This document shows, in pieces, positions 4,174 to 46,445 of a stretch of DNA of 64,000 nt. Position numbers and translations under genes: made by a program. This stretch comes from Amoebophrya sp. A120 (Eukaryota; Protista; Dinoflagellata), in assembly GCA_905178155.1 (NCBI GenBank), contig CAJINV010000019.1, positions 1,224,913 through 1,288,912 of the forward strand. Direction: 5' to 3'. The notes under the pieces are model-generated. The model saw only the letters and a list, made by a program, of their open reading frames with translations. It was not told where the DNA came from and ran no database searches. The number at the start of each line of letters is the position of its first letter. Position 1 is the first letter of the stretch.

Positions 4174-4335
4174 GACGTGTGTTGGATAGGTAAGCATGAC
4201 AGGTGCATTTTGTGATGCTGATTTGCAATGAGAACTTGCAGTCAGCTGCAGTAGAGAGCAGGGCCTGGTTCACGATTTTCCCGTGCATAGCAGGAGAACA
4301 AGCGGAGCACCAAGCGGTGGAGAATGCGGCAATTC

Positions 4336-4546: not shown

Positions 4547-4921
4547 AATTCAGAAGCCGTATTTATTTTCGATATTAAGTAACCTCCAACCTGGTGCTCG
4601 TGTCTCTTTCTTTTTGCGATTGCTTGCTGAGAAAACGAAAAGTTGCTCCGTCACACGGCATAAAATCGGCATGACACAATGAAACACTACTCCACAGGCA
4701 CTACTACGATAGCTACAGTGGTTACGCAGCTTGAAAACCAGCAGCTCGAAGAGCGGTCTTTCTTCTTGGCGGATGGCACACCAGGCATGAAACAAAATCT
4801 TCTCTCTTTTTGTTTTGATGTATGCAAGTGTTGCATGAACTAGCAAGAATAGGACAAGCCTTCATCTTTGACGCAATTTATTCGTGCATCTTCGTTGCAA
4901 AAATCTCTTCCGGCGGCATGA

Positions 4922-5776
4922 AGAAAGCTGAGAAGTGTCGACGACGCCGCGCCGAAAAGAAAGCCGGTCTCTTTTCTCCACCATACTTCGGCCACACTAG
5001 TGCAGCGCAATGGGAAGTACGTCGCGGCAGCGGAGCAACCGATGGCCTGGGACTCCATCTTTGATGACCTGTTTGATTTCGATAACTTCAGAATCCGCTG
5101 GCCCTATGACGACCCAGACCGGAATAAGTTGCTGCACCAAGACGTTTACGACTGGTATTTGAATAAGTAGGTTGAGTTTATTTCTTCGTTCTGAACAAGA
5201 TCTGCAAGCCGTGAGTTCAGCATGAGAAGCTATGGTTCTGTCGCTGCTGTTCTGCATGAGAAGTGTTGGAGCGCTGCGGTGTCAACATGGCTTTATCTCA
5301 CCTGTTCAGCATTACAGAATCAACAGCAATCCATTCGAAAAATAAATCAGGTATGACCGCGCTAATCCATATCTGGAGCGCGACGAGGACGTGATGATTA
5401 CGGAAACTTTACGACAAAGAGAAAATCTGTACATGTAAAGTCATATATTAGCATTAGAAACTGCCTTTCTCATGCTAGATCATGCATGACAGACTTTTTC
5501 TTTTTCCCCCTCATACCCGGCATCCGCGTACGTGGAAGAGAAGCCGACGCTTGACCCGGGCGGTTTATGGAAATGAGAAAAGCCTTTTTTCTACGGCGAT
5601 CTTTTGTCATGCGGGTCTTGCATTATAGACTGAGTGTACTTGTCATGCTGATATCACTAGCCACAGCTTGGTGTAAAAACTTTGATGCAGCAAAAGATCA
5701 ATGCCTTTTCAATCTTTTTCCATACCCGTTTTTCGCTGCCCTGGATGACGTGCTGGAGTCTCTGAAGCCCTACTAA
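4922..5776 (+). CDS. 3' part of a hypothetical protein; exons ~4922-5154, 5351-5409, 5521-5565, 5730-5776
   Basis: GT-AG intron 5155-5350 plus two eroded TIR introns give a continuous frame ...LHQDVYDW|YDRANPYLERDEDVMITET|SSAYVEEKPTLDPGG|FFAALDDVLESLKPY*. 5' end not resolved. Confidence 0.5.
5410..5515. mobile_element. Eroded TIR intron
   Basis: TACGACAAAGAGAAAATCTG...CAGACTTTTTCTTTTTCCCCCTCATA; no TSD match; element+5 nt restores the frame. Confidence 0.4.
5566..5724. mobile_element. Eroded TIR intron
   Basis: TATGGAAATGAGAAAAG...CTTTTCAATCTTTTTCCATA; flanks CGGTT/CCCGT; element+5 nt restores the frame. Confidence 0.6.
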
Positions 5777-6430
5777 GGAGTTACCGGAACAGAATTTGTC
5801 ATGCAAAATGGTGTTACGGAGCATAATTCTTACTTTTGATGGCACTAGTGCTAGCGACGTTTCAAAGAAGATGGCAGACAAAAGACACAGATTCCACCAC
5901 AACTTCGGATCGTTTAAGTCAAGAACTCGACCACTAGAAAATACTTTTACAACTGTACAAAGCAGGGTCCAACATCTTCTTTTCTCGAATCTGCACAGCA
6001 AATTAACAGGCTTGTTTCCCACAAACAGTCAATCTGGGAGCTTCGCGTTGTCACGATGCTTTGGTCGTCGTGATAAAGAAGGCACACATGATTCACGCGA
6101 ACCCTTCGTGTGGTCGTGAAGAGTTCATTTCCCAGGATACGGGGAGAATATTTGCATCTGTTAAGTACGCCTTTCAGACCTCCCGCATCTTGGTAGCGTG
6201 ATGGTTTAGTTGAGGACTAGTTCAGATACGATCTAGCGCTCAGAAAGACAGGATATTCGCCTCGTCTGCTTCTACCAGATGTATCCATAATATCCACCGT
6301 CCGCTGCGGTAATCACCACTACACCTGTAAGCATCAGGCGTTCTTGAGAGGAGCGGCGAAATTTTTTGCGAGGTAAAGCGAGGCGGTGCACCAGATTCTA
6401 AGTTCAGTTCGTGTAAGGTAGAAGTACAAG

Positions 6431-9400
6431 ATGTCGTATGAACGCGCAAAAACAATATCTTGCAATACATAGGGGATGAACCCTTGTTGTGCATTGGACA
6501 GAGCATGCGATAATGGCATTTTTCATGTGACGCGATCATTTTTGCATCTGAATGGTTCTTGCAGCAGATCGTGCCTCTTTCGTCAGAAAATCTTGAAAAA
6601 ATTATCCCGTTTAATTGCAAGAGAACTTTTCAGCACTTCTGTCCATACCGCAGAATCGTCCTACCAGCACTACGGCGACCGGGCGTTTTATGGATAGAAA
6701 AAGCTGCAAGCACAGCGAGTTTGTCGTGCGGAACCTGCGTAACTGATCCGCGTTGTGATGCAGAAATAGGATGAACCATTCGCCTCATCGATGCACGGTA
6801 TGATTTGTTCGCATGACAAATCTGGCACAGCTGCTCTTTCTAGATCTCCATACCCCAGCCCACAGGTCCTCCGGCCCCGGCGCTGCGATAGCGGGAACGA
6901 GCACGAACGAAGCATTTCGGATGCGGAAATCGATATCGCAGTCAGCAAAGACCATACAGAACAGGATACAATTATGGAAATGTGAAGCGAAGTTTTTTTT
7001 GAGGAAACTGACTTGTATTCCTTAGTAGCAGAGAAGTTGTCTTCACAGAGAGACAACAACTTCTAGTTGCAGGTTTATGCACCCACGAAATATAGTACTG
7101 CTATTTGTCAGAGTACTTGATCAAACTTCACGTTTTTTTCTCTCCATATTCGTACTTCAAGGTAAGTCAAAATCCAAGAGTCAAATTTGCTGGTCCCACA
7201 GTTTTGAATTTGATGTCGCGATTCACTGTGTTGCATTCACATAATCCTGCTCGCATGACCACAGATGTGGTGCTGGTGTGGTCACCAGCTGTGTATTACT
7301 TCAAAAAATGCAACGTACTATCACACTGAATAAAACAGCGAGAAGAAGACAAGATCTGGAAGGGGCTGGAGGAAGTGAGACGGCAAGCGGCAATATCAAA
7401 AGGAAAAATCCCCCCTCCCCATATCGAAAACGAAATTTGTGATGCTGTATTTGAGTACACAAATCGACTTGTAATGCTAGAAGGCCAAGAGACGCAGCTC
7501 TGGCCTTGTTTGCAGGCAATTTGTCATGCTGTTTCCCACTTCCAGCTGCTCCCTGTCATGCTGAAGATGCAAGGCTTTCCCACGCCAACCAGCACTACAG
7601 TCCGCATCTTTTCCATTCTAGCATGACAAAGCTGATTTGTGACTACATATCTGCATCACAAATTTCTAGTTTGAGTATGGGGTGGGGGGATTTTTCACTT
7701 TGATAGGCAAAGATAGAAGATGGTCGAGGGCGGATGCTGGAAAAGAAGCTCGCGGATAAAACGGTACAAAGTAGTTGCTTTGTCATGCAGAAGACGCATG
7801 GCAAATTTATTTGACATGCGTACTTACGACCACACTGGTAGAAGTGCGTGCTGTAGAGCCTAACTGGTCTAAGAGTGACATAGAAACTAAATGTCAAAAA
7901 ATCCACCAGCTCACCCAGCGGCGCGCGCAGGACTATTACGAGCGTAAGATGCAAGTTACTTCTATGCGGGCTTATGGAAAATGAAATCTGTCGTTTCTGC
8001 AAATGCGGTAATTCGGTTCTTGCAAATGACACACAGAGACTTCCCTTGAACAAAGTTGTGCATCAAGTGTTTTATCATGCTGGCCCTCGAGTTCTTGTAG
8101 AAGGAGGAAGTTAGAAGTAGTAACAAAATTATACCTGCGAAGACCGTCACATCACCCATTTCCCTCCCATACCCCAAACCTGGAGCACGGCAAAGCCAAC
8201 ACGCGGGCAGAGCTCAACTCGCTCCGCGCAAGTCAGGGCCGGATGCGGAAGCAAGAAGCCCAAGATATCAAATGCAAAAATGTCTGGGTCTGGAAGAGTC
8301 ATGCTGTTTTTACATGACACAGAAGGTCTGGCATGGACGCTCCAGCATCACAGGTGTTGAGAAGCTTCCGCGGTGCCGAATCCGCATGACAAATCCCCTA
8401 TTTTGGTGACAGAAAGCGGGCAGCTTTTGCTGCCTATGCATGGGAGATTTTTCTGTGTTCTGAAATGCGCATCACAAGTTTGTATTGTTGCAGACCCAGA
8501 CATATTTGCAATCCATACAAGACGCCTACCGACAAAAACAGGCGGCGGACCAGGCGAGAAAATTGGCCAACGCCGAGCGGGTGCTCGCGCAGCAGCGAGA
8601 GCAGCTGGAGGCAAAACTGCGGATCAATCAAGAGCGGGTACAGTAGAAGAAGGAAGTCTTTGATGATGATACATAGTGCCATCAAAGTTGTTTTGCATGG
8701 CAGATTTCGATTTCCATTCCTCGAAAACAAAGAGAATTCATCGTAGTGTAGTTGTACAACCACTGCGCATGACAGAAGCAACTACTCATGCAAGCGCTAC
8801 ATCAGAAGCAGCTCGTTCGAAAAACGACGAAAATATAAACAGGCGGACAGAATATCGCGGGTAAAACAAGACCAAGAGGCCGCGAGGAGAAAGCAGGAAA
8901 CGGAGTGTGAAATGATGCATACGAAAGTTGAACAAATGCTCGTCGATCGACTTTTTTTCTGCTTTCAGTTTTGTTGGATCTTGCACATTGGTTCGTTCGT
9001 ATATCTGTTACGCGCGGCGATGTGTATCTATGTGGTACGTTTCGACTTTCGAGTAGATCGGAAGATCGCATGACAAACTGAAGGAAAAGTCAGACATCGA
9101 GGGCGTTGTTGCACTTGCATATCCCACGCCCAAATACCGCAACTGGAGGAGGAGGAGATGCGCTGCCTGCAGAGATTGCAGAACAGCAGTAGAAATCATA
9201 TACATCAATTCACGATTTCGATTTGATACTGTTCGTCTCATTCTCGCATGACAGATTTCAACTTGTATGCTTCGACGCAATGAAAATCCTTTCTCTATAA
9301 TTCAACAGGAATCGTCACCCAATCCGTGCTTTCGGAGCTGGAGGGCAGCCTTGGCGCGCGCAACCCCGTGACCAATCTGCTGCGCGCGAAGGCGTTACGG

Positions 9401-9940
9401 ACCCAATCTGTGTTGGACGAGTCGCAGTTCGATTTAAACGCAGTGGCGGAGGAGGAAGAACATGAACACCACATCGAACAATCCGAGGCTGTTCCCCAGG
9501 AACAAGAGGTCGAAGGACAGCACTACCACTATCGTAAGCAAAAATCCCCCCTCCCCATATCGAAAGTGCAGCCAAAGAAAATTTGCAATGCTGATGTGTG
9601 ACCACGAATCGTCTCTGTCTTGCGAGAAGGCAACCCCACAGGCTACGCCGGATCATGCAGGCGGTTGGTGATGCTGCTCGGCTTACAGCATGGACATTCG
9701 TCACGCTCGGCGCGTACGTCAAAACTTCTCAGCTCAGGGCTTCCACACGCCTGCAGTCCGCTCCTGCGAGACAAATCCGATCTGTGTACGGAAGTCCAGC
9801 GTCAGAAACTTTGTTTCGATATGGGGACGGAGATTTTTGCTTTTGATAACCACATAGATAGCGACCAACTTCCTGCTGCGGCGATCCCAGGCGCCGCGGC
9901 CGCAGCCATGCCGCACCAGTTTCGGCCGGATCCGCGATAG
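6431..9940 (+). CDS. Coiled-coil hypothetical protein, ~13 exons (8 TIR-element introns, 4 GT-AG introns)
   Basis: Manual splice: MS|ESSYQHYGDRAF|AHRSS...IQNRIQ|YFK|REEDKIWKGLEEVRRQAA|KIEDG...|...QLEEEEMRCLQRLQNS|RIVTQSVLSELEG...QHYH|IDSDQ...PDPR*. The acceptor near 8795-8806 is uncertain. Confidence 0.75.
6437..6647. mobile_element. Eroded TIR intron directly after codons Met-Ser
   Basis: TATGAAC...TCTTGCAA / TTGCAAGA...GTCCATA; flanks TGTCG/CCGCA; frame restored. Confidence 0.6.
6689..6852. mobile_element. Eroded TIR intron
   Basis: TATGGATAGAAAAAGCTGC / GCTGCTCTTTCTAGATCTCCATA; flanks CGTTT/CCCCA; frame restored. Confidence 0.7.
6973..7148. mobile_element. Eroded TIR intron
   Basis: TATGGAAATGTGAAGCGAAGTTT / AAACTTCACGTTTTTTTCTCTCCATA; flanks ACAAT/TTCGT; followed by an 8-nt exon and GTAAGT. 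Confidence 0.7.
7394..7705. mobile_element. TIR introner, family B
   Basis: TATCAAAAGGAAAAATCCCCCCTCCCCATA...TATGGGGTGGGGGGATTTTTCACTTTGATA; perfect TSD GGCAA. Confidence 0.95.
7973..8171. mobile_element. Eroded TIR intron
   Basis: TATGGAAAATG / CATTTCCCTCCCATA; flanks GGGCT/CCCCA; frame restored (MRA|NLEHG). Confidence 0.55.
8266..8517. mobile_element. TIR introner, family A (252 bp)
   Basis: TATCAAATGCAAAAATGTCTGGGTCTGG...CAGACCCAGACATATTTGCAATCCATA; perfect TSD CAAGA; reverse-complement homologue of 63426-63677. Confidence 0.95.
8920..9121. mobile_element. Eroded TIR intron
   Basis: TACGAAAGTTGAACAA...TCGAT / ATCGAGGGCGTTGTTGCACTTGCATA; flanks ATGCA/TCCCA; frame restored (MMH|AQIPQLEEEE). 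Confidence 0.65.
9530..9848. mobile_element. TIR introner, family B
   Basis: TATCGTAAGCAAAAATCCCCCCTCCCCATATCGAAA...TTTCGATATGGGGACGGAGATTTTTGCTTTTGATA; perfect TSD ACCAC; internally similar to 82-404. Confidence 0.95.
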
Positions 9941-11159
9941 TGCTGGTCGGCGGAATTTTCTAGCTCCGACGTCGTCGGGAGGAAAAAATTGGTTGCCGGG
10001 TGTGTGATTCTGATTTTCCTGCGCAGCATAATGCTTCTCCTCGAATTATGGAGAGCCAGTTTGCACGATGATGATCACGAAAAGCTGCAAAATAATTATA
10101 CGCACTTCCTGCTTCTATCAGAGAGAGTGACGTGTGTCACGATTTTTGCGATTGAGAGGACTCTTGAATTCGAATTGACAAAAAAACTTTTTGTAGAATT
10201 CTCGGCTTCTTGAGCGGCCTTTATTTGGAGTTTGCGGTGTTCGCGCATCGTTTCATTAGGGATAGACGAAGCATAGAGACGAGTTCTGCGAGGAAGAGTC
10301 CTTGGCGTGCGAGAAAGAGAAAGAATCAGTACACGACGAGGGGCGATGAAAAGGTTTCACTGTTGTATCCGCAGCTTTATTATCGCGTCGTGCGTTTTTT
10401 CGAGAATGGAAGGCTACCGTGTTAGTAGACGACTAGTTGTACATTTTAGATTCATCTATTCGTTGCGAGTGGTTGCAGCTGGTTTAAAGAGGCTGGAGAA
10501 CGTGTGGATTCGCTCGTTCGCGTAGTTCTTTCTGCCTAGGTTTTCAAGTACCAGCGTCGTCGTGCGTACGTAAAGATGGAACTACGAACAATGCAGCGCC
10601 CTCTCTCATGCGTTCCTATATATTGATGCATTCGCATCCAATTCCTGACAAACGAACTGAATTCAACGTGTAGCAAAGCCTAAATAGAAAAGGACCTTGT
10701 ACTTCTTTTGTCTTTATCGTTGGGCGATAGTTCGTATTAACATCCTAAACCTTCTCTCGTTGTCACGACGTGGCTTGTTCTTCAGCCTACGAATTCATGT
10801 TAACAAGTATCCGATCTGTATATGCGAAAGTAGAAAACAAGTAAAAGTGTTTTTTCATTGGGCGAGAACTAAGTACTACCACGATAAAAATCGTTCCTGA
10901 AGCTCGCAAAAATAAAGACAAAAACCATGAAATCTGATTCGTCTTCCGCCTCCAGGAGGCGCTGAGCAGCGGCTGGACTGTCGCATCAGCAGCTGGTAGA
11001 ATTGGAAAGAATACAGCAACCGGTGGAAGACTTCTTCTACGGATGCTAAACCTGCCGCCGCACAAATAGTAAAACGGCAAGAAAGACGAGGACCGCACAG
11101 CGGAGGTAGAAGTCGACGACAGGTACTGGAACGAGTTGACCACAGATTTCAGCAAAAAA

Positions 11160-12153
11160 ATGACGGAGGGCGGCTACCTGATTTACACGGAGGACAGCCT
11201 GGGCACGCTGTTTCTGAAGTGGAGCAAGGAGCCAGTCGAAAACGCATTAGCCTTTTTCGAGGCCGGCAAACCAATACCGGCGTTCAAATTCACCACGAAC
11301 CAGTATGGAATGGGAGATTTTTACTTGCGTGTAAGTTGGTTCTGAGGCGGATAGAAGGATTGTCAACGTTGTTTTGCATCAAAACTTTTTTGCATTTTCG
11401 TTTTGTTTCGAAGGAAATTCACGAACAAGAGTAATAATTATGTGCATCAGACATTTACATTTTTTTTGTCCTGCAAAACTGGAACCGATATAATGAATCA
11501 CACAAAATCTTCCGACATCGATAACCAAGGCCGGTTTCAGCTGATGAAGGGCTGTCAGGACAAGCAGAAATTTTTCGAGGGCTGGGGCGCGTTTCTAAAG
11601 GAAGCGCTTTGCCGGTAGAAGGTCGCGTTTGTAATGTATCTTCAAATTTATAATATGGTGACTGACAACTAATCGCAGTTGTCATGCGTGGTCGACGTGA
11701 TGAACTGATGTCACAGCAAAACGCCAAAAAACACAATAATTATCAGGTTCAACGCGACCAGCCTTGCGGTTTACGCAAAACAAAACGCGCGCGAAGACGT
11801 GCAGGTGGTCTTTCTCGAGCGCGGAACCTCCGCGGTGCAGCGAATAGAGCCCAACGGAAAGTGGAGCGGTGACATCACGAGTTTGTTCGCTTTCGCCGTG
11901 GTGCCGGTGGATAACGAGACCTACAACTGCGGCACTCTGGACCAGAATCTATTCGTGTCAAAAGGTATAAAGATGTTCTAGTTCGAATTTTGTATTGCTC
12001 CTGGACTTGAATTATGACAAATAAAGGTAAAACGGGTTTATTCGAAATTTGTAATGCTTCCTAGAATACTAGTACACATATGTCAACGCCGGTAATGCAA
12101 AATCACCTATCTAACCAGCGAAAATCGAGGGCTGCGGGTACTCGCTGAACTGA
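11160..12153 (+). CDS. Immune-mapped protein (IMP1/IMP2)-like protein, ~160 aa; exons 11160-11303, 11529-11614, 11747-11964, 12119-12153 (possible alternative last exon 12493-12707)
   Basis: Spliced product GGYLIYTEDSLGTLFLKWSKEPVENALAFFEAGKPIPAFKFTTNQGRFQLMKG...FFEGWGAFLKEA resembles the IMP N-terminal domain of apicomplexans, recognised from memory and not searched. Exons sum to 483 nt. Two GT-AG introns and one TIR intron. Confidence 0.75.
11304..11523. mobile_element. Eroded TIR intron in the IMP-like gene
   Basis: TATGGAATGGGAGATTTT / AAAATCTTCCGACATCGATA; TSD ACCAG/ACCAA; gives KFTTNQ|GRFQL. Confidence 0.8.
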
Positions 12154-14586
12154 GAGCAAAGCCGCGTTTTGTCTGTTTGTGATGCATAGCGTCACCATCA
12201 CAGCGCAGGCTTCCGGTGCATGCTATGCATGACAAATACGAGCTGTTCCTGTAGTTGCTCTTCGTCGTTGCCTCGCGCTTGCTCCAGCCCAGTTCGTGGT
12301 CTCGCATTTTGTTCCTTCGGCTAGTTAGGAGGTAAAGCATTACAAATTTCGCGAACACCACTCGTCATTCGGATTCTTCTTGTTTGATGCGTGATTTTTT
12401 TCAGCCTGAGAGCCCGTTTTGACACTTCTTTGTCATGCAGAAATCCGAGACGGAATCGAGAAACCAAAATATAAAACGACTTTATCAATCAGGTCAGAAG
12501 GCGGGCGCCGCCTTTCCCATAGAAGGGGGTGGCGGAGCCAGCGGCCGAGCCACGGTTGCGGTGCCAAGCCTTATGCTGGGAGAAAAGTTGAAGCAAGGCA
12601 AAGGCAAAGTTCGCAAAAATGGACTTGTCATGATGGTTACGAACAGTCATCGTGCCTTTAGATGTAGGCGGAAAACTACATACTCATCTCTCATGTTTTG
12701 TATGTAATCACATTAGCATGGCATTGGCAAGTCGCAATTTACGAAGCCTTTGACTTGGTTGCTCAACTTTCTCACGGGATACAACTGATGAACGAATCCC
12801 CTACAAATCGCGGCCACCCAGCAAGGCACACAGTAGCATAGGGAAAGAAGAGGAGGCTTTTGGCTTTTTTGTTGAAAGTTGTGCAATATGCAGTTCCACT
12901 AGACAGTTCACTTGTACAGTACCCCTACCCGCAAAATTCTATAAAGTGTACCTTTGCCTCAACACTCCTAAAACTGTAAAACAAATTCAAAATCTCCACC
13001 ACTATCTCCTGCCAACTTCATCCCAACTTCCTAGAGAATAAATGGAAAAAACACGTCACTTGAAAGATCTATCCCGCTGCTCTCCTTCCGATGATAAATA
13101 ACGACCCGCGCGGGGGACTACCTCGGGCACTAGGCGAAGATGCGCTTGTATGATATATAATGCCGCCCCTGATACTTACTACATACCTTGTCTTGATGTG
13201 TTTTTTTGGAACGAGAAACAAACGCAGCATGACGACGCAGGTGGGGATGGGCTAATATGCGAGAAGAGCCCGGAGCTACTTTGCTGTTGTTTCCTGCATA
13301 GTATATCGGTCGGCCTCCCCTCTACTGCTACTTTCTCCTATTAAAATTTCGGTACAATATTTTCCGCAACTTCTTCTATCTGCAGAAAATGTCATGTTGC
13401 AGCCCACCACAACGAACTCGATGTTTCCGATACCTTTCTGTTGTTACAACAGGAGTACATAGTCGAACCGTTGAACAATCGAAGATGCGCCCGCGCACAA
13501 CTAGGTAAATGCCGCTACAAGGATGAAAAACCAAAAAACTGCCGACGCGAAAAAGACTTTGATGCCACAGGTTTGCTGCCGCTTCCTTGTGTAAAAACCC
13601 TAGCAAGATGAAAAAGTCTTCTTCGACAAGTCCTGTTGTTTGGCTGTTGTTTCAGTGCTCGACTGCTGAGATTGTTCCAAACACCACCACCGCCGGATCG
13701 AATTATTTCGCACGAACAAAACTCGGTTTGGAAGTGTCGCTTGATTGACACAGTAAGCTGTTTCATATGCTCCAGTCACTTCGCGGCGGGAGTTGTGATA
13801 GATTACAGTACAGAATCGGTCATCGCAAGCCTCTTGCGAGGCTCGCGCATTCGTCCGCTTGCACGCACGAAAGAAAGCAGATACTACCAGTATACAGCGT
13901 CATTAACATTGCATTTTTCGGTCGGTGTCGATTTCGATATCGGTAAGGAAAGCGCTTTTCTTTCTTGTGTCTGGCCCCAATCGGTTTTCGTTTCGCATGC
14001 CTCGGTCTCTCTAGTAAAAATCGTGCAAGAATAAAAATGAAGACAGTGCCAGCATTACCATTAGGCAGTATCGGTATAATCTGTTTCGCCTGCCGTATTC
14101 GACATTCCGCTCGTCATCGTCCAACACCTTCGACTTCGTGCAATATTCTCGTGCAAGAACTCATCAATTCTTTCCAACGATTGCACTAGCGACCTTCACT
14201 TCGCTTCCGACTTTTATCTTCAACCGATGACTGATTTCTTTCGTCCACGTGTAATCGACAGGATGAAATGTCAAAGCCCCAACTTCTATTTCATCAAACT
14301 TGGATAAAAGATGTTTCCCTTTTATTTTTTACCTGCAAATTATGATGACGAAGCGAACTTTGATTATCAAGCCAAATTCGGAGGAGCCTACTTACTTACT
14401 TCCTGGAGGAGAGTAGCACAAAAATCATCATGAGCTTTCATGCGATCACGACCTTGTAGTTGTAAGTGACACTAGTACAACTTCTTCCAGGGAAGAAGTA
14501 GCGTTTTATTGTTCCTCTCACAGCTTCTACCTTCTCTTCTGACGCCATTTTTCACTACAATACTCAGTGTACCTTATATTGCAGTT

Positions 14587-16418
14587 ATGCGCGGTGCAGA
14601 CGCCGTTTGGTCCTCTCCCTCGTCGCACAGCAGCAGCGGGGGAAGTGAGAAAATTGCGCGAGGAGGACAAAAAACTGCTGGAGCCACACTCTTTCCACTT
14701 CTCAGGAGGTCCTCGAACTTTCATTTTCACTACACAGCGGCGTGGTGTGTCTGTGTGGTCCTCGCCGGACACGAACTGTTCGCGAACCTCGCAGGGAACA
14801 ACAATTTTTTGCACAACTACGACCAGGAGGAATGTCCCCATTCTTCCGGGGCGGCGGGGTTCATACAACTTCTCGGCGTCCGGGGGATGCAGGTGGAAAA
14901 ATCTTTCCCCCACTTGAAGAGAAGGAACTATCAAATGCAAAAATGTCTGGGTCTGGAAGAGTGCAAGGTTTGTGATGCAGTTTTTCCATGACCCATGAGG
15001 CCTGGAATGCAGCACTTAGCATGAGAAACGCTGTGAGGTGTCTATCATGCCTATCCTGCATGAGAAACTCCCTCCAAACTGGTCAAGAGTGGACATCTTT
15101 TGGCACTCATGCAACACAGATTTCTGCATGATTCAGATTTAGCATGACAAGTTGCAATCTTCCAGACCCAGACACTTTTACAATCCATAGGAACATGGCT
15201 GGCACCACGTTTGAGGAGTACTACACCAGTGTGACAGAATATCGCAAGATGAAAAAACTGCTTCACTGTGAACTTGTGATGCATGGAACGATGGAGTAAA
15301 AACAGAAGTATTCTGTCTTGCTGTTCATCTACACATGCAAGACATTTTTGGATTTTCAACCGAGCCGTGTTGAAAAATTAAAATACCCTTTAGGAAGTGG
15401 AACGCACGGCATCAAGTTTTCTTTGTGGTCCGGTGTGAAGATGATACAAAAGACGTTCAAACAATAAATCGTTTACTATCGTGAAGCGCTACTTTTTTCG
15501 TACGATACAAGCCAGCCCTCGGGCCCGACGCAGACCCTGCCGAAGCAGGTCAAAAAGCCCCGGCGAAGGATGCCGCCCGAGCCTCTGTTTCCAGCGGAGC
15601 CCCCTCCCAAGCCGGCAACCGCCGAAATGGAAACGCAAACGGACCCACAGGACATGGGCCTGATCTACGACCCAGAAACCGACCAGTATTTGACCCCGGA
15701 GCAGCTGCGTGGCCGTGAAGAAGCCCTACATATGCAAGGAGAGGCAGCGATGACGCCCGCGTTAGCAAACTTCAATTTCACCGCAGGTCGTTGATGTTCT
15801 TGTGGCTATAGGGGAGAGATGTTCTTGTGAGCTCAGGGTGGACCTCCACCACGGCGACACCGTTGCATGGAAAAAAGCTGACTTGCATTTATTGTGCAGA
15901 TGTACCTCTACCTCCGCATTTACCATAACTTTTGAACAGGGGAGGGTCCTAAACAATTGGAGACTGTTGAAAGCAATAGGTTCGACGACGACGTCTTCAT
16001 CGATACGACCACTGTATTGATATTCGATGGGGAGCAGGAGGCTACTCCTGGCATAAAGAAATCATATCCAGGAAATATAGAAAATTTCACGGCTAACGCC
16101 CGAGCATCATGGTTGCATTGCATACAACGCCTGGCGGGTTTGGACCCCAACAGTTTTGTCGACCCGAATCTATTGCTTGACCCGAGTCTAGTACAGCCAC
16201 AATTTGACCAGTTTGGGAATCCGATTTTTCCCCCGCCGCCAGGACCAGAACCGATTGTCAGCCCTATACCGGGACAAAACGAATATGGGCATTCCGGGCT
16301 CGAGCGGCACGACGACGAGGACGCTCTTAATGGAGGTGGTCCACAACCACGACCGGTGCTATCACACGTAAAAACGCCCCCTCGAAGAGGACCCTTCCCC
16401 AGAGTAGTTGCCATGTAA
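14587..16418 (+). CDS. Hypothetical Pro-rich protein, ~379 aa; exons 14587-14928, 15195-15239, 15513-15786, 15940-16418
   Basis: Two TIR introns plus GT-AG intron 15787-15939 join ORFs 14509, 15570 and 15957 in frame (1140 nt). Start codon uncertain. Confidence 0.7.
14929..15189. mobile_element. TIR introner, family A
   Basis: Family A TIRs; perfect TSD GGAAC; reverse-orientation homologue of 62834-63098 and 51610-51866. Confidence 0.95.
15240..15507. mobile_element. Eroded TIR intron
   Basis: TATCGCAAGATGAAAAAACTGCTTCAC / GTGAAGCGCTACTTTTTTCGTACGATA; flanks CAGAA/CAAGC; frame restored. Confidence 0.75.
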
Positions 16419-19400
16419 TTAATCCCGCATCTGCAGGAGCGGAGACTAGTAGGTGCGTCGTCTGATGCACCTGCTTTTTCGCAACTACGGGACGAGAGAC
16501 GTTTAAGTGTTTCTAGGAACAATTGCGTTTCTTGTTGGGAAGATGAAAATGTCCTGAGCGTCAACTTTTCACAGAGATGCTTTCAGCAAGCAGGATCATG
16601 ATCATAAGAGACTTTTATTCTCATTGCTGCGGGGGCAAAAACTGCAAGTAACTTGGATCCTTAATCCCCGCCATTATGCTGTAGCACACACTGAATAGAC
16701 TTGTCATGATGCATGTTGACGTCCCCCAAAAAGAAACTTCGGCGTTTTTCTCTCGCGGAAGACGTTGTATAATTTCGTAACTGGGGAGCAAGAAGGGGAG
16801 GTTTTTACAAAGGATACCAGGACCCGAATGACCCGAATGATCCTCTCCGACTCCGACCGCAACCACCGCCGCGGCAGCCTCCCGGCGAAGCCACGGTGAC
16901 TTTATTCAAATCACACTTCGTGTATCCCACCGAAAATTGGTGCATTTAGCGTACGTAGTACTTTAGTTGTCAACAAATTTGTTCTTGCATGTAAACATGC
17001 GAAAATGTATTTCCGCAGAGACTACAGAAATCTTGACGTTGTGTCGCCCGTAATCATTCAAAGCAGATGATCATACATGATACAACTTGGTACAACAATG
17101 CTAGAAGCTGCAATTTTCTAGTCGACATCGCGCATGATGGAAGGATCGAGCCACTGGCGGTGCGGGGCGGCTCCCCCTTTGGCGGGTTTCGCGGCAAGGG
17201 CGGAGGGAAGGGCAGCGGGGGGGCGCGACGGCAGACGCGAGCAGCGCCGATCGGCGGACGAGGTCCGGGGGCAGGGAGGGGCGGAGCGCCACGTGGTTTG
17301 TCGTGAGGTGGGTCGTAAGGCCTGTTGCAAAATGAAATTAGTTTTCAAAAGGGAAATAAAGATGCTGTGAAGCTCAGGATCACCGATCTGTGATCTATGG
17401 ATGTCGCGATAAGGCCGATTCGACGGCCTTCTCACAGGGACTGAGTAACTCCTCTGGCTTTGATAATTCTATCGTTTGCTCGCATCAAGAACTGCAACAC
17501 TTGTTTAGAATTTGAATTTCATCTATTTTCCGCAAGAATTTCTATAGCCTCACTATTTTTATTTGACAGTACATTTCATAATCTTAATCTTACCTATTCC
17601 GACCATAATACATGAAGAGCATTATTATACGCAACAATGAAAAAAACACCGACTCGGAGGAATACTAGAGGATGTCGCAACATTCGCCGACTGCGACACA
17701 AGAATACGCGTCGCATGATCAGCTTGTGCAAACGTGAAGTAGATCATTGCCGTGCAGAAGTCCTTTTCAACCTTTATCCATTTCAATATCTTTCTTCCGA
17801 TTATTCTCTCGTACCAGTATTTATTTTGTGTACACTACAGCTTTCGACGGTTTAATATCTTATCTACCAGTTTGTTTATTCTCAGTTTGCTTCTTAACCA
17901 CTGTACCGTAAAATATCGAAATTAGCAGAATATTGTCCTCTGAAGATGAGGTTTGTTCGCGAGGAAGAAGGTGAGCAAAGAACGTGAGCAACCTGATCTT
18001 CCATTTTTGGTCTCTTCTTTCTCGAAAAGCCCCCGCGGTTGGAAGTTGCCGCCGGTGCTGCTGCTACTGCTGCGACCGCTTTTCATCAAGGGAGATAATC
18101 CCACTTGATACTGTGCACCCGCTGTTTTACGACCATCGTAATATTAGAAGCTTTTGAAGTTGTGAAATTTTGCCTCGGTCAACCGCTTGACGACGCAAAA
18201 AATCCAGATCGGTTCGTGTTGTGTATTGAAAATAAGTGATTCTTTTATCGTCGGTTTCTTTCATTCTGGTGCTCAAAACTTACTATTGTGAGAAGACAAA
18301 ATCGCAGTTTCCGGTTCGTGCAGTGCACAGAATAAATCCGTACCTCGTAGACAATTTTCGGTCGGTCGTGCGTGTGGTCCGCTTAAAACTTGCGTGCCGA
18401 GGAAAGAAGACAAAAAGAAGTCGGTATAAAAGTAGGACCCTGAAGAGCTGGCGTGTCTCGTACTTTTCTCCACTGTACTATAATACAGGTGCTTACTACC
18501 GCCTCGTTGTGCAGCTTTATTTTAATACCGATAAGCAGACTTGTGTCTGGGATTTGATTATTTTAATACCGATCGGTCAGTGAGCGTAAGTAAGTGGTGC
18601 TTGTTGCCCCTTTCGTTCTGTACGTGTGAATTCTGTTGTTCTAGAAGAAGTGTATTACAAATTTTCGTTCTCCACACTCAAAATCGTGCATACTAGTACA
18701 ACATCGTGCATCAAGATGAACTTGTCGTACTCGTTCGGAAGGTACAAACATCATCGTGCTTCTAGAATTGCCGTGCAAGTTCGGTCGTACTAACAAGGAA
18801 ACCTCAGGAGCAGTTGTTGTTTCCGAGTTCGACGTGTAGGGGGCAGTTTATTTTAGGCTCCGATATCGAATTCACCTACCGTGTCTACACGTGAGAATCT
18901 TTCTTTGCTGAAACTACAGATCCCCTTCAGACGAGTTACTTATGCGTGGTGAAAACTCGTTCCCCAACGAGGTCGAAGCATGTAGTAGTTTCGCTTGGGT
19001 TTCTTGTTCTTTTTCGTACACTACTTGTTGTAAATTTTTCATCATTCTCTCCATGTTCCGTGAAAATCTAAAGCATTCCCCGTAATTTGTTGTTTATCAA
19101 AATCATTTCTTTTTTACCTTGTGTGTTTCCGCTGTCTACTGCTTTCTGCTTGTCGAGTTTTCTCCAAAATTTGCAGCAAGGAGCGGAGTTCTTGAACGCG
19201 GAGAGAGGAGTTCCTGAATCACACAACTCCGTCGGAAAAAACTCGTCGAACTACAACTCGCGGGGTGTCCGGGCAACTGTGTGGAAGAAGCAGTCGCGAA
19301 TTCGTTTTCGTTTCAGCGAAGGTGGTGAGAGCAGCTCTTGTGTTCTTCAGTTGACGCGACGCGGACCACTCCGGTTGTATTCGATTCTACGAGAGTGCAC

Positions 19401-19670
19401 ACGACCTCCGATCTACCAATCCACCGCACTTGTCATGCAAAATACCACTACATTCACAGATTCATTGTCGTGGTGTGCATGAACAAAATTATAATACTTC
19501 CTGGAAAAGCACTGGCACACTCGTCAACGCGTTTCTTTGTCATGCGGAGGCTGCAAGGTTGCCGTTCATCCCTCTTATTGCCGTTGTAGATGCAAACATG
19601 CAAATGAGGCGGAGGGCGGGTGGTCGGGGTTGTCCACTTTGATGCCAAAGAACCTGACTGAACGGGGAAG

Positions 19671-34600: not shown

Positions 34601-37600
34601 CAGAGTATTTGCCAGCCGCAATGCCCATGCCCTACTATACCCAGCGTCCCTAGCCGACTGAGTAGAGATAAAGTATGTACGTTATACGAATCAGGACGAC
34701 GACGGGCGGGAAGGCTACTACGATGACCTGCACAGCGCCGCTGGCGACGGCGGAAGTCCAGGGGAAGGCCTGCTTGGCGCCGAGAGGCTCGAGGAATTGA
34801 GGGAAGGCGACGCGCTCCCCCGTGGTAACAACCACCGCACGGAGAACATGGTAGCACGAGCAATTCCAATTCCTTCGACTACCACTTTTTTGAAATAAAC
34901 AATGCGACTTTATTACTAACATGGATCATTATTTGATGGTGGTGGAGCAGTTGTTCACCTTATTTTGCGCCGCGCAAGAGCCTTGTTTGCAGAGGCCGCA
35001 GCTGCCAAGATGACGCATTTTCAAGCGTGTGACCGACATATAGTGGTTTTTATTTATTTCGAGGAGGGGAGTTAGCATGTGTGTCAGTGAGTCTTGCTCA
35101 CGCACCAGTGTGTATTTTTACCAGGGCGTCAGACCTCGCAACGGAGAATTCTAGTTTTACTAACGTCAACCTTTGGTAGTATTTTTGCCACCGAAGAATC
35201 CAAGACCAAGTAGAGCTGCTCCTGCTGGCATGACGAACAAGATCGGCGAATTTCAATGCCGCTGCCTGAATGTATAGAAGGAACACCCGACATCCCCGTG
35301 AAAAGCGAAGACGTCAGGCATTGCTTCATTTTTGGCCATTCGCCGCCTACAACGGCTTACGCAGTAGACTTCTATATCGAGTATGTCAAGCTTGATTAAG
35401 TTTTGAAAAAAATCTCGGGGTATTACAGAACGCGAGGGAGCCGCGGCAGAAGGACATTACCATGAGCGACGAGGCACTGGCGAAGCGTGAAGAACGCATC
35501 AAGAAGATGAGGTCCGCGTCCGCAGACGACGCAGAAGACGGGGAAGCCTGGCTTCGGGCCAATGTTCTTGGCGTCGACTTGTTCGGTGAAGGCCCGGTAC
35601 CACTATCAGCTATGTTGTTGTACAGGCTTTTCTCATATCCTCCTGTGAAGCTTTTATACATCGATCTGGCGAAAAATCGGCGCAGTTTAGGGCAAGAAAT
35701 AATTGGAAAAACGCTGTAGCGTGGTAGAAATTGGGCGTGGAAAAGGATACATGCAGTTGAGGCCTGTCCTAATTCTCCACTTCTCTACAACCTGAGACAG
35801 AAGCAGAGCTTGAGCTGTGCAACGCGATTATTGTCAAAGCACGTTCTCGTTGTGCATTTGAAGGACAGTGTAAATGAGTGCTAGTTCGCGAGCCTCAAGA
35901 AGCTTCGGGTTGTATTGGCGACGTGTATTTGTTTGCCGAATTGAAATGACTCGAGGCTGCGCGTTTAGGGGTCGCACGATGAAGCCGAGTTTTGATATGT
36001 GAAAGTACTTCCGTCTTCTTTGTATGTGTTCGCACGGACTGCCATGGCAGCGCGACTACCATACGACAGTGCGAAAATTGTCTTTGGCATGGTGTTGTGC
36101 AGTGCAAAGAGGTCTGCAGCAGTCTGTCACGGGAGATTCAGAATCTTTGACTTTCTAACAGGAAGCAGAAGAGGCCGAGAGGAAGACTTTCGGAGACCCT
36201 CCGCCGCCAAAAACTGGACAGCAGGTACAACGAAGTTTCATTTAAAACTGTGCATTCCTTCGCAATATTTTGCTTTCGTGATGGAACACTTAAACAAAAC
36301 TGCGCACGGCCCGTTGTTATCTGTGTCTCTTCGAATGCTCCTTCATTGGCTGGGACCTGGCGAATCCGCCAGATGGCTGGCTTTGCTCAATTCCCGTAAT
36401 TGTCCCTTATTTTCTTTCGAAATCAACTGTGGGCAGCCAGAGCACCATTCGTTCCGGGCCCACAACTTGTGCGGACTCAACTTTAATATTCATGTACTTT
36501 GCTGGTTGCAATAATTCTGCAGGTCGTCCCTGACGGCGAGCAGGTTGAAATCGGGGCTGACTTAGAGATGTTCCTGGAAGCTTGGGAGCTTACTCAAGAT
36601 CGTGCAGTTTTTCGTTTGAAATTCCAAGCCGACGACACCCAACCGGACGAGACGGGCAACGCCCGGTTCGTTGTGCGACTAAATGAGGCCAGCGAAAACT
36701 TATCCCTCGAGAGCCAGAAGATCAGCGTTTTGGCCAAGACGGAACAGGAGATTGGGGATAAACAAAGTGAACTTGATTACGAATGGCTTTGGTGGTTTTA
36801 TTTTACTCCCCAACTGACCCCACACTCGTGCGTGCAGATCGCAACCAGTCCTGCCATCACGCAAAACGCGAAAGAGGTCATGAGTTGTCTACAGTGGCCG
36901 CCCGAGACAGGAGCAGAGGCCTTCACGGTGGTGGACTGCGTATCGGGAAAATCATTGCAAGCGTTCTGTGTGGAAAAGCCAAGGTGGGACAAGGACGCGT
37001 TTTATTTTTTTCGCAAAATAACCGAGGAGGAGGACCTCGAAAAGGATTCTAGCCTCCTTTCCGTGAATGCCGACAACGGGCAGCTCTTGTCAGAGATCCC
37101 GGCACACGGGGCTGATGGTATACTGCGGATGTACATCGACAAGCAAAAGCAACACAATCCGCCCAAACCGCAGCAAGCTGTTCGAAAAGCAAAGGAGAGC
37201 GAGATCCAAAAAGAAGCGTGGGGCGCCCTGCTCAGCGGAAACGATGGCGACGAAGAATCTCCAGAGTCCGTGGGGGGCGAGTCCAGTTTTGATGATTCCA
37301 AGGTCAAGGGAATGCTGCAGCTGTATTCGGTGCGGAAAAAGGATGAAGAGGAAGACGAGGACGGCACCACGCAAGCTTCGCAGTCACCTGTACTTGCAGT
37401 GACTGTCGACAATGGAGGCGGTCCTGAAGCCAATCTCCGGGTCCTCCCGGTCATACCAGCCACTGGAAGCTACTACGAGTGGCAGTTCAAAACACTGATC
37501 AAATTCAATGAAAAGTTCAGGGGCCACGAGATTCCGTGTGGAACAATGCAGCTGTCACAGCATTCTCTGACAGCAGGACAACAGCTGTGCCTGCAGCAGG

Positions 37601-42305: not shown

Positions 42306-45300
42306 ATGGACGAGGCCAGCAAGCTTTCCCCGGGGAAGACGGAGTCCACCGCGGTGCCCTCTCCCTCGACGAAGGGCGGCTCCCCCGAAAAGGCTTCGGA
42401 AGAAGAAGTGCGGGCAAGGCTGTTCAAGGTACAAAGAGTTTTTTTTTTATCCCAGTAGCATGCTTGCCAAATAACAAAGAAATAAGGTTGTTGATCAATT
42501 GTCGCTTCTAAGTAAACTGATGACTCGTCAATCGTGGATTCTCTGCATCGTTGGATATTAATTAAGAATTTTAGACTTGATCATGAAAAAAACACCAGGG
42601 CCTCGGACGCGACCTCCTTTTGTCGATCAAAGAAGGCTATCGAATGCAAATATTTTCGTTTTGGTTTTGGGTCTGCCAGAAACCCGTAAAAGTAGTAATT
42701 TGAATAAAAGTTAACCCACTTGCACGACCCCCGCACGACACGCTGCAGGTTTTTTTTTTGTAGCCGATATTATACGATGCAGCTCCACTCCTGCGCGGTC
42801 ACTAGGCATGAATAGATTTTATCGGAGCCGGGGTTGTCATCTCAAAGCCCAGCTGCTGAACACTACATATTGATCTCGTCTCGACCCAGAAGATCGACGT
42901 GTATTTGCAATCCATAAGGGCGACATGCACAAGGCGCAAGGGCTATCCTGAGTAAAAACGTACCCACACCATAGTCAAGATGGGGAATCGGCTAGACAAA
43001 TCCACAAGTTTTGGCTGTTTTGCATGACAAATTTGGATTCGTAGTGTAGTGCTGTTTGAGCTAGCTCAGCAGCATCACAGATCTAGCATACCATGCTGAT
43101 TGGAGCATGACAAATTGCAAAACACGACTAGAAAATGCTTCTCATGGGGCTCCGCATGAGAAACGTTTTCAGGATGCAGATTTGCATGACAACTCTGGTG
43201 TGGGTACGTTTTTACTCAGGATAAGGGCTGATCATGGGCGGTGTGGAACTGGATGCCCGGGAGCCGGTGACCGGGCGTATCAAATGCAAAAATGTCTGGG
43301 TCTGGGAGGATGGAACTTGTGATGCTGTCTGTAGATTCCAAAAAAGTCTGTATTGCATGACCAGCAAAAGGAGTCCACATTGTCCTACGCGGAGAGGGCA
43401 TCTCTCATGCGGAATACGCACCAGAAAGCCCTCTCAAAATCAGTGATGCTAGGCCATGCATTACAGGCATGATGCGTCATGCAAAATATGCATCACAAAC
43501 CTCGCACTCTTCCAGACCCCGACATATTTGCATTTGATAGAGCGCACCGCTTTGCATCTCGCCGTGCAGATATCAGGGGAAAAACAAGTTTTGTTTCAGT
43601 GCAACAACGTGACTGATCGACATCAAAGCGCCGTCTACATCAAAACCCATAGAAGAAGCAGATCCGCGGCCATTTTTTCTGTCAGAATCTTCACGTTTAA
43701 CAAACACAAACTTCTAGGGTAGAATATGTGCTGTCGTGCTTTCTATGATCTGCGAGAAAGCACAGAATTAAAGTTGTAAGGTCTTGCACTGAGTAGAACA
43801 TGCTTGTTTTTCTGTCGATACCAAAAGACCGCCATGGGGGTCGTGAAGCTGCTCGTGCAACACAAGATTGACGTGAACGCGGTGGACCGCATCGGTGAGG
43901 TCACAGCCCTGCACGTCGCTGCGCACCGCTATGCCAAAGAAAAAAGCTAGCCTAGCAGTATGATCGTTTGATTTGGGAAGCAAAACAAAGCGATATAGGC
44001 CGTGTGAAATTTTTAAACTCTGTCATGGGCCGCGAGCTGTCTAGGGCATTGCAGTGTTCTTGGAACTGGGCAGGAGAAAATGACACAAGCTTTTTTTTGC
44101 AGCAAGTGCAAGTGATGTTTTCGCATGACAAATTCGACATGTGCAGTCGGCTATGCATGACAAATTCGAGATGCTAGCTTCAATTTTCTGTTGGATAATT
44201 AAGGGCAGATGGTGATGCTGAAGCACTTGCTGGCCGCGAAGGCGAATTTGAACCTGGTCGGCGTGGAGGGCGACACTCCGTTGTCGCGGGCGGTATGACA
44301 GTGCACAACTCCCCCGCGTTCCCATTTGTCATGCAGAATACCAAATCCACGCTTTCCCTCCTGTCACTATGATGCATGACAAGTTCTGCTAGCCCAAATA
44401 GCACTACAATCCAGCTCAAATTTGTCATGCAAAACCAGCATTCTTGCTGATGCTTGTATAACCGTTCATGCTATAGAAATGAGGGGGAGGGGTAGTTGTG
44501 CACTGTCATAGGCGGCTACGCAGGGCCACTTAAAGGTGCTCGACTCGCTTATCTCTAATGGGGCCATCTGCGACCTGAAGCAGCGGCAAAGCATCAACGA
44601 GTGGCAGCAGGCCGAGATCGAGATGAAGCAGCTGGCCCTCCAGCAAAGCACGACGGCCTCGGGGTCGCAGCGCGGGCGGAGCCCCATATGATGGTGAACA
44701 ACTCGCTCCCACTTGTTCTTCCCTTGACTTGAATAAACGCATAATGTCTACTTGCAGCAACAGAAGCAACGCCATCGCCAAAAAACAAGTATAGCTTCTG
44801 CATGACATTCACAATATCGAACGAATTCTGACAGTGATTCATTAATCACAGTTCAATATTCGGGAGGTTCATCCTGGTCCGAAATTTGTTTATGTCGGCA
44901 GTGTTTATTTCTGCAGGCGAGAAACCGGATTTGGTACTTCTGTTGCATTTACATTTGAGCGGAAATTGAAATTGTAGTAGGGCAAGATGTTTACTGTCAT
45001 ACTCCACGCGCAGTATGCAGGGCCATGGCGACCGCGCTTTCCAACCCGCAGTTCGGGACCGCCGGGAGCCGGTGTCTGCGCTAGTGAATATGGATTGCAA
45101 AAATATCTGGGTCTGGAAACTTGTGATGCTAAAATGTGGATGATGGAAACACACCCGAATGCAACCCAGCATGACAACTTTCCAAGACGCTTTCCCATAG
45201 GCAATCCGCATGAGGAACTGCGTTTTTGCATGTACAAAAGAGGCTCCGACTTTTGTTGGTTATGCAATACAGATTTTCTAGGTATGGAAAGCTAGCATTA

Positions 45301-46445
45301 CAAGTTCCACCCTTCCAGACCCAGACATTTTTGCAATCCATAGTGAAGGCCGTGAAGCGAAACTGCGGCATTCCGGTGGTTAAAACGCTGCTAGAGATAT
45401 CCAACGAGAAAAAACTGTGTTCGTGCCACTTGCTTGATACAATGGACGAAAAGCATGACAAATTCACTCTGCGTGACAGACTTGAAGACGTGTCATGCCT
45501 TGCCAGCACGTGCATTTGAAAAGGAAACAAACACTCAGCTCGGAAAAATCAATAGGTGCGCAAGTACCTAATCACCTGAGAACGGCCCTGGCCTCGCATG
45601 AGAACAAATCTAACTGTCTTGCATGGGGTCGTGCAACTACTTACACGACGAGCTTACACTAAACAGAGTTTTTTCCCCTGGACAGGACATCGGGTGCGAC
45701 TCCAATCGGACGGATGAAAAGATGAACCGACCACTCCACGTTGCGGCCCACTACGGAAACGCGAACACGTGCCGGCTCTTGCTCCATGCGAAGGCTGCGG
45801 TGAACGTCGGTAACCACCTGGGCCGCACGCCCCTGCACTTCGCGGCGCGTTCTGGCCACGCCCGAATCTTCCGCATGTTGCTCGACTACAAGGCCGAAAT
45901 TAACGCCGAGGACCGCTTTGGGCAGACGCCACTCACCCTGTGCTGCGACACGATGATGTATCCACAGTAATTTTCAATTTGCATCACTACACTGTGACAA
46001 ATTTTTGCACTTTTGCATAAAGAGAAAGTTCACCTCCTGCCAGCACTACTCAAGTACTTTCATCCTACAACTCAGCACTTAACATTTAGAAGCACTGCAG
46101 GGTTTTGATGAAGATGTTATGTTCATCTTTCGGAAGCAGAAGTTCTAGTACATGCACCGTGCACTGACTTGTCCTTGTGTGGTAAATTTGTACTTGCATA
46201 AGACGCAGAAGCTGGTGAAGGACAACGGTGGTACCCCCGGATACTCCGACGAACACAACGATGTTTCGCCACCGGTTTCGCCCGCGCGGTCCCTGTCCCC
46301 CGCACGGAGCCCGAGCCCGGACACCGCGCCGCGATTCAACCCGGCCGGCGCCAGTGCCGGCAGCCAACCCGGCTCCCCCGCCACAAAACGGTCCCAGGCC
46401 AACAAGTTGCAGGGCTCCCCGGCCTTCTTCCAAGAGCGACACTAG
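42306..46445 (+). CDS. Ankyrin-repeat protein, ~421 aa, 12 exons (1 GT-AG intron, 10 TIR-element introns)
   Basis: Exons 42306-42428, 42599-42637, 42922-42943, 43229-43277, 43545-43570, 43826-43929, 44203-44293, 44516-44686, 45007-45088, 45348-45397, 45690-45958, 46206-46445 (1266 nt). Ankyrin motifs GRTALHLAV, TALHVAAHRG, GDTPLSRAATQGH, RPLHVAAHYG, GRTPLHFAARSGH; several are rebuilt across junctions. Confidence 0.9.
42638..42916. mobile_element. TIR introner, A-related
   Basis: TATCGAATGCAAATA / TATTTGCAATCCATA; TSD AAGGC/AGGGC. Confidence 0.85.
42944..43223. mobile_element. TIR introner, family C
   Basis: TATCCTGAGTAAAAACGTACCCACACCA / TGGTGTGGGTACGTTTTTACTCAGGATA (perfect 28-bp TIR); perfect TSD AGGGC. 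Confidence 0.96.
43278..43539. mobile_element. TIR introner, family A
   Basis: Family A TIRs; TSD GGGCG/GAGCG; splits ankyrin motif TGR|TALHLA. Confidence 0.93.
43571..43820. mobile_element. Eroded TIR intron
   Basis: TATCAGGGGAAAAACAAG / CTTGTTTTTCTGTCGATA; flanks GCAGA/CCAAA; gives LAVQ|KTAMGVVKLL. Confidence 0.85.
43930..44197. mobile_element. Eroded TIR intron
   Basis: TATGCCAAAGAAAAAAGCTAGC / GCTAGCTTCAATTTTCTGTTGGATA; flanks ACCGC/ATTAA; gives AAHR|GQMVMLKHLL. Confidence 0.8.
44294..44510. mobile_element. TIR introner, family F
   Basis: TATGACAGTGCACAACT / AGTTGTGCACTGTCATA (perfect 17-bp TIR); perfect TSD GGCGG. Confidence 0.93.
44687..45001. mobile_element. TIR introner, family F-like
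   Basis: TATGATGGTGAACA / TGTTTACTGTCATA; TSD CCCCA/CTCCA; frame restored. Confidence 0.8.
45089..45342. mobile_element. TIR introner, family A
   Basis: Family A TIRs; perfect TSD GTGAA. Confidence 0.95.
45398..45684. mobile_element. Eroded TIR intron
   Basis: TATCCAACGAGAAAAAACTGTGTT / AACAGAGTTTTTTCCCCTGGACA; flanks AGAGA/GGACA; gives TLLE|IGCDSN. Confidence 0.8.
45959..46200. mobile_element. Strongly eroded TIR intron
   Basis: TATCCACAGTA / TACTTGCATA; flanks TGATG/AGACG; gives CDTMM|QKLVKDNGG. Confidence 0.6.

Follow-up and report, generated by a model that had tools for sequence, protein, structure and literature searches.

Introner introns in a 64-kb window of Amoebophrya sp. A120 are cut out at one constant −1/+4 offset, even where the flanking duplication has decayed

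Introners and genes of the window

The DNA considered here is a single 64-kb stretch (the window) from Amoebophrya sp. A120, whose exons 9311-9529 and 45692-45955 match at 100% the public proteins P0001 and P0026, both assigned to A120 by their sources. Its genes, among them those for a coiled-coil protein, an ankyrin-repeat protein and the public protein P0125, are interrupted by elements that are bounded by an inverted repeat and a short direct duplication and are spliced out. Introners of A120 with an inverted repeat of TAT, seven nucleotides (nt) and AAA, with direct repeats of 3-5 nt and with non-GT-AG splicing have been published (Farhat et al. 2021, PMC7789003, accessible parts). The elements of the window show TAT followed by seven looser bases and at least three A, a border repeat of 3-5 nt and splicing without GT-AG. 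They correspond to the introners that Farhat et al. 2021 described and are as such already known; the splice position is the subject here. Non-canonical introns make up about 65% of those in A120; the accessible text of PMC7789003 describes them as being without a splice signature, their borders unknown. Here we show that the introners of the window are cut at one fixed offset, from 1 nt before the left terminal repeat to 4 nt beyond the right one (−1/+4), independently of the duplication and of the terminal dinucleotides, and that this offset survives decay of the duplication.

Perfect 5-nt duplications are found in 22 copies, here called young; in the remaining copies the duplication has decayed. 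Among the 44 ends of the young copies TAT is present at 44, TA followed by T or C having been the search criterion, and A occupies positions 11, 12 and 13 in 40, 42 and 42 of them. Elements are designated by their first position. At the 11 sites named in an original prediction made from the letters of the window, and at 43278, the left end reads TAT or TAC. The right end reads ATA, or ACA in the case of 45398, and the 5-nt duplication beyond it has decayed. The offset was tested at 21 elements with mismatched duplications, all in genes on the + strand, against spliced contigs or public proteins; 4723, 11304 and 12572 lie outside the list of the original prediction and were taken from contig joints, and 16360 was chosen in advance as a site able to separate offsets. 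Base composition was compared in 41 elements, 22 young and 19 old, the latter including 49685, a copy without junction evidence. A blind profile scan of the window returned 54 pairs and three shuffles returned 12-20 pairs with scores up to 26.6; low-scoring pairs were left unused, and the scan mispaired or missed several real old copies.

Introners are densely clustered at 2-17 kb and 42-64 kb, whereas few recognisable ones lie in the 25 kb between 17400 and 42000, which hold an open frame of 1212 codons (36487-40122). The young introner 53263-53473 (211+5 = 216 nt) lies within the stop-free frame 52495-54231; if retained, it would lengthen the product by 72 residues and leave the frame intact. 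A candidate old element of 645 nt (61152-61796) has a fully mismatched duplication and AT-rich surroundings and, if transcribed, would discriminate between offsets. A protein search with 56781-57620 gave no match.

Position of the splice sites

Joints at nucleotide level were obtained from contigs of runs X1 and X4 and are confined to positions 1-16000 (15 listed of 39 joints, 16 listed of 753 pieces). Sites at 42-46 kb as well as 6689, 7973 and 8920 were judged at protein level by means of public proteins. These proteins may share their RNA source with the contigs, the annotation having been transcript-based, and they provide extra sites, not independent samples. Contigs drop rare variants, which hides minority junctions. 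Two of the 15 listed joints, 2453>8497 and 4419>8374, connect repeat copies and were discarded. The raw-read runs X9 and X10 covered 2/30 and 1/30 bins, by repeat matches only, and yielded zero junctions.

Offset −1/+4 is permitted at all 21 mismatched elements, 0/+5 at 13, −2/+3 at 11 and any other offset at six or fewer. Joints without slide fall exactly on −1/+4 at 4723 and 5410, each in X1 and X4, and at 15240 in X1. With offsets drawn at random among six, the eight contig-supported sites would share any one offset with P=2.4e-4. Introns of length element+5 were confirmed by spliced contigs or by exact rebuilding of P0001 (from residue 3), P0026 (421 amino acids, aa) and P0125 (369 aa), and all 369 residues of P0125 are rebuilt only by a uniform −1/+4. 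At the pre-chosen site 16360, P0125 carries Asp, as predicted by −1/+4 or −2/+3, and not His. P0125 also brought to light the introns at 15731 and 16923. At 6437 a piece of X4 ends at 6434 and a contig of X1 at 6435, where 0/+5 would predict 6436. The intron thus delimited has the form N-TAY…AYA-NNNN, with TA at +2/+3 and A at −5. The target is rebuilt from four bases of the left copy and one of the right, which leaves the messenger RNA (mRNA) unchanged after insertion into any target sequence.

The original prediction had placed the cut at the left repeat and 5 nt beyond the right one (0/+5), even after the duplication has decayed. Its fixed position outliving the duplication is borne out, and its 11 sites are real introns of length element+5; the offset itself is not the one given. 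Applied generally, 0/+5 is compatible with 13 of the 21 sites and rebuilds the ankyrin protein too, but it is excluded at eight (4723, 5410, 6437, 6689, 11304, 15240, 15731 and 16360) and thereby refuted as a general rule, while rare minority junctions may remain; we give this rule, or scattered junctions, almost no credence. Three of the excluding sites (15240, 6689 and 6437) are among the 11 named ones. The other eight named sites cannot separate 0/+5 from −1/+4; the fifth duplication base, which separates the two, differs at 5/11 named sites only, and −1/+4 is excluded at 0/11. At 5410, the prediction's own starting point, the joint is exactly −1/+4. The upstream copy had been taken as exonic and the downstream copy as intronic, which is correct for four bases and reversed for the fifth, where the left base is intronic and the right base exonic. 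That keeping the right copy at 43930 creates an in-frame stop, that the left copy supplies a Gly at 43278 and that it overlaps the ATG at 6437 was rightly seen, and excludes only slides of 3-4 nt or more. The junctions at elements with mismatched duplications, proposed there as a check, permit −1/+4 at all 21 elements tested.

The reading frame cannot fix the offset because every slide within the duplication keeps the intron length: gene A encodes 309 aa under 8/8 offsets and gene B 328 aa under 7/8. It was rejected as evidence on the offset, nearly all offsets giving the same protein length. RNA editing was also rejected as the origin of the one-base shift; it needs several different base changes, each equal to the genomic right copy. 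The joined forms could further be element-free DNA alleles or assembly artefacts, the RNA label of X1 and X4 being a guess, with no run on record as RNA. However, the same contigs skip GT-AG introns (4123>4294, 5153>5350, 11613>11746, 11962>12491) and the spliced models agree with three public proteins, which leaves this origin very improbable.

Published intron ends point in the same direction. Table S4 of PMC7789003, as far as accessible, gives nine predominant intron classes for A120, whose first two bases are GT, CT, AT or TT and never TA. This fits −1/+4, because −1/+4 predicts a start of N-T and 0/+5 predicts TA. The nine classes of strain A25 begin with TT, and the A25 repeat begins with TTA (PMC7789003, same parts), so that T+2/A+3 recurs with a different repeat. 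No statement of a fixed offset for Amoebophrya was found in the literature searched, which lay outside the figures of PMC7789003 (Fig. 3, Figs S19-S25), most subscription papers, the supplements of other papers and bioRxiv supplements; the fixed −1/+4 code appears to be unreported.

The tested introns and their genes are given in Table 1. The exon sum of gene B, 891 nt, equals record 7 of X4; two of 540 combinations fit this length and one of them reads to the last exon. In P0001 the start lies within the 6437 introner, which is not spliced there and contributes 59 extra N-terminal residues. The contigs indicate splicing and an ATG at 6431, and the N-terminus of P0001 is likely an annotation error. 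Micro-exons at 4552-4558 and 7153-7161 (about 8 and 9 nt under −1/+4) lie between an introner and a GT-AG intron and are present as the letters between joined pieces of the contigs. One X4 contig (2847 nt, 3554-10186) covers gene A, the gap 5778-6430 and gene B. Transcripts may overlap or read through here, which the contig alone cannot show. The ankyrin model is identical to P0026 under 0/+5 or −1/+4 only.

Table 1. Introner introns under −1/+4, a GT-AG intron of introner shape, and host genes
Feature	Position	Strand	Evidence and offsets
GT-AG intron of introner shape, G-TAT…ATA-GCAG	4124..4293	+	joint 4123>4294; −1/+4 register = canonical ends
Old introner T-TAC…ATA-CTTC	4722..4989	+	joint 4721>4990, no slide, X1 and X4; exactly −1/+4
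Old introner 5410	5409..5519	+	joint 5408>5520, no slide, X1 and X4; exactly −1/+4
Introner 5566	5565..5728	+	joint 5564>5729, slide 2; −1/+4, 0/+5, +1/+6 same product
Gene B, 328 aa coiled-coil protein	6431..9940	+	8 introner and 4 GT-AG introns; P0001 from residue 3
Introner 6437	6436..6651	+	−1/+4 or −2/+3; 0/+5 excluded indirectly
Introner 6689	6688..6856	+	only −1/+4 yields Leu of P0001 (not Phe)
Introner 6973	6972..7152	+	letters between pieces at joint 6972>7337; −1/+4 or 0/+5
Introner 7973	7972..8175	+	protein permits 0/+5, −1/+4, −2/+3
Introner 8920, left end TAC	8919..9125	+	protein permits +1/+6 to −2/+3
Old introner 11304	11303..11527	+	joint 11297>11523, slide 5; 0/+5 excluded, −1/+4 permitted
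Old introner 12572	12571..12785	+	joint 12569>12785, slide 2; −2/+3, −1/+4 or 0/+5
Gene for P0125, 369 aa	14587..17400 (end approximate)	+	5 introner introns
Introner 15240	15239..15511	+	joint 15238>15512, no slide, X1; Asp in P0125; exactly −1/+4
Old introner 15731	15730..16128	+	P0125 only via −1/+4 to −3/+2; 0/+5 excluded
Introner 16360	16359..16820	+	P0125 only via −1/+4 or −2/+3; 0/+5 excluded
Old introner 16923, right end ACA	16922..17131	+	P0125; 0/+5 or −1/+4
Ankyrin-repeat gene, 421 aa	42306..46445	+	10 introner introns, 1 GT-AG intron (42429-42598)
Introner 42638, ankyrin gene	42637..42920	+	P0026; offsets indistinguishable
Introner 43278	43277..43543	+	P0026; leftward slides of at least 4 excluded
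Introner 43571	43570..43824	+	P0026; offsets indistinguishable at protein level
Introner 43930	43929..44201	+	P0026; 0/+5 or −1/+4, each with Arg; stop from −3/+2 on
Introner 44687	44686..45005	+	P0026; 0/+5 to −3/+2
Introner 45398, right end ACA	45397..45688	+	P0026; −2/+3 and beyond excluded
Introner 45959	45958..46204	+	P0026; 0/+5 or −1/+4

Stem, register and candidate machinery

According to the original prediction the sites depend neither on the direct repeat nor on dinucleotides, which is upheld, and are set by geometry only, which is not. With the offset corrected, the latter idea would have a stem with a 1-nt 5′ and a 4-nt 3′ overhang measured whatever its sequence. Mean end pairing is −22.5 kcal/mol in young and −12.1 in old copies, compared to −7.9 in cross-paired controls, −6.7 in shuffled ones and −4.9 in canonical introns, and a U+2:A−5 pair is possible in 21/21 old copies, as such a stem would have it. 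However, all 21 tested old copies retain T+2, A+3, A−7 and A−5, TA and A-Y-A being invariant, and a terminal pair is broken without compensatory change in 5/21 (TAC/ATA at 4723, 5410 and 8920; TAT/ACA at 16923 and 45398). Folding gives terminal pairs a probability of 0.0 at 4723, 5410 and 6437; at 15731 and 16923 it does not exceed 0.07. All five copies are cut in register. The overhang also drifts: where positions 1-4 of the duplication are mismatched, the right copy has C in 21 cases and the left copy in five (P=0.0025, hand tally). Pure geometry is therefore improbable, and it is likely that sequence rather than geometry alone sets the sites, because little stem is predicted for several of the old copies that are cut exactly.

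With the corrected offset, the introners fall into the G-TA…A-N-C-A-G register of GT-AG introns. Ten such introns were located in the same genes, four by joints, two by letters between joined pieces, three by length, frame and P0001, and one by P0026. GTA starts 10/10 of them and A stands at −5 in 9/10 (P=0.0045 against a local A content of 0.45, the position having been chosen after the fact). One has the shape of an introner, its −1/+4 register being its canonical ends (Table 1). The C at −3, invariant in canonical introns, is found in 9/19 old versus 2/22 young introners (P=0.012; composition tests are uncorrected, and 8 of the 19 old copies belong to two adjacent genes). T is the first intron base in 7/19 old versus 3/22 young copies and A the first exon base in 10/19 versus 5/22, a possible drift to preferred junction bases. 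The motif GCATGAC/GTCATGC occurs, in both orientations, 6.3 times per kb in young introners, 3.0 in old ones, 4.5 in GT-AG introns and 0.23 elsewhere in the window; it is found once in 6119 exon bases, and GCATGA followed by C or G, or the reverse, is present in 9/10 GT-AG introns (examples are 4559-4697, 7162-7338, 8638-8842 and 9189-9308). Either the GT-AG introns descend from introners or the motif is a general intron mark. A text search for GCATG in the main text of PMC7789003 was negative.

The fixed −1/+4 removal is probably the work of the resident U2-type spliceosome, which would read U+2/A+3 and A−5 and tolerate any terminal bases. The U and purine of a U2-type donor at +2 and +3 are provided by TA in all elements under −1/+4. 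The TA of the element would stand in for +2/+3 of a G-TA donor. The 3′ end would be recognised by the final A of ATA, which lies 4 nt ahead of the cut and might be a branch point merged with the acceptor. In young copies the terminal stem would hold the ends together, and with age it would become dispensable. The A120 spliceosome is near-complete, and U1 small nuclear RNA (snRNA) was not detected in it. Intron position +3 contacts U6, and an effective distance of 4 nt from the branch A to the pair of intron termini has been proposed (PMC8283771, accessible parts). A structure-measuring endonuclease and ligase had been suggested originally; the shared register points to a spliceosome at least as much.

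Several points weigh against this reading. GT-AG ends, or the GT(GC)-AG termini of U2-type introns, are present at −1/+4 in 0/41 elements, and the accessible parts of PMC8283771 give the pair between the terminal bases a central role in step 2 and name G-G and A-C as the only pairs tolerated. By eye, nothing at the 3′ ends matched the standard U2 branch consensus well, and the literature search found no paper on a fixed branch distance in Yarrowia as a precedent. A stem over +2…+6 would compete with U6 pairing. Old copies pair their ends better than shuffles on average (−12.1 versus −6.7 kcal/mol), and low predicted pairing is weak evidence, folding giving no terminal pairs for some young copies too (52367). 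The nine A120 classes of Table S4 make up 20% of introns and may reflect aligner choice (PMC7789003, accessible parts). Finally, the shared internal motif means that the GT-AG introns may derive from introners, in which case TA and A−5 would be inherited and not independent.

The same −1/+4 rule might instead be the work of a separate machinery, either non-spliceosomal and dedicated to these introns or a second, divergent one, which would recognise short terminal motifs at fixed spacers like that of Euglena; we hold this reading possible though doubtful. The terminal bases are free, with 27 different end pairs among the 41 elements, and paired motifs stand at fixed spacers of 1 and 4 nt. Euglena introns of the form N3-CDG…CHG-N5-6 depend on spacer length in knock-ins (PMC12501133) and give circular excision products, as reviewed in PMC11282704 (both as accessible). 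The first exon base is a purine in 14/19 old versus 9/22 young copies, weakly resembling the Euglena preference. On the other side, the register equals that of GT-AG introns, with an intermediate at 4124-4293, A25 too shows T+2/A+3 with a different repeat, and 15% of canonical A120 introns have the same repeat layout (Farhat et al., PMC7789003, accessible parts).

Returning to the spliceosome, we tentatively propose a stronger form: a U1-less spliceosome would dispense with both terminal Gs and the acceptor AG. Its cues would be U+2/A+3 and a branch adenosine at a fixed 4 nt before the 3′ cut, both supplied by the inverted repeat. Any insertion with a 5-nt duplication would then be an instant perfect intron, old copies would become GT-AG introns without a change of register, and A25 would have reached the same U+2/A+3 register by a different element. 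A single rule, N-TAY…AYA-NNNN, would provide a code for these introns, fix annotation and explain how target-indifferent transposons persist as harmless introns at tens of thousands of places. The splicing mechanism becomes testable, with regard to a branch at A−5, lariat versus circle, and motif versus stem. If true, the terminal G-G pair would not matter to this spliceosome, and what the second step is held to need would have to be revised.

Comparison with known systems

Organism and elements are shared with the A120 introners of PMC7789003, whose accessible parts call the borders variable or unknown, whereas one offset, −1/+4, fits all 21 elements here. The legend of its Figure S23 places the repeats 1-5 nt from the splice sites; the copies of the window have the single offset −1/+4, which the figures may show in part.

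The likeness to euglenid offset-stem introns suggested originally holds in kind. As far as the accessible parts of PMC12501133 and PMC11170887 go, nonconventional introns of Euglena share paired terminal motifs at fixed spacers, free ends, direct repeats that blur the borders and a likely origin from miniature inverted-repeat transposable elements. Their motif is CDG…CHG with spacers of 3 and 5-6 nt, CDG occupying +4..+6 and CHG stopping 5-6 nt short of the exon; in A120 it is TAY…AYA with spacers of 1 and 4, at +2..+4 and −7..−5. Unlike that of the A120 introners, the Euglena motif lies outside the G-TA donor register, and excision as circles is reported for Euglena. The fixed spacers of A120 agree in kind, and terminal pairing is strong in young copies (−22.5 kcal/mol) and weak or absent in several old ones.

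Fritillaria borealis (PMC11282704, PMC13326754, accessible parts) likewise has non-GT-AG introns derived from elements with terminal inverted repeats and target-site duplications, handled there by an adapted U2 spliceosome. Its preferred ends are AG-AC and AG-AT and its U1 is conserved, whereas in A120 the dinucleotides are free except for T+2 and U1 snRNA was not found. Terminal-inverted-repeat introners that co-opt splice sites in the duplication (PMC9860276, accessible parts) are cut inside the duplication with the mRNA restored, as in A120. Those introners carry or recruit GY/AG sites, whereas the A120 elements need no particular target sequence.

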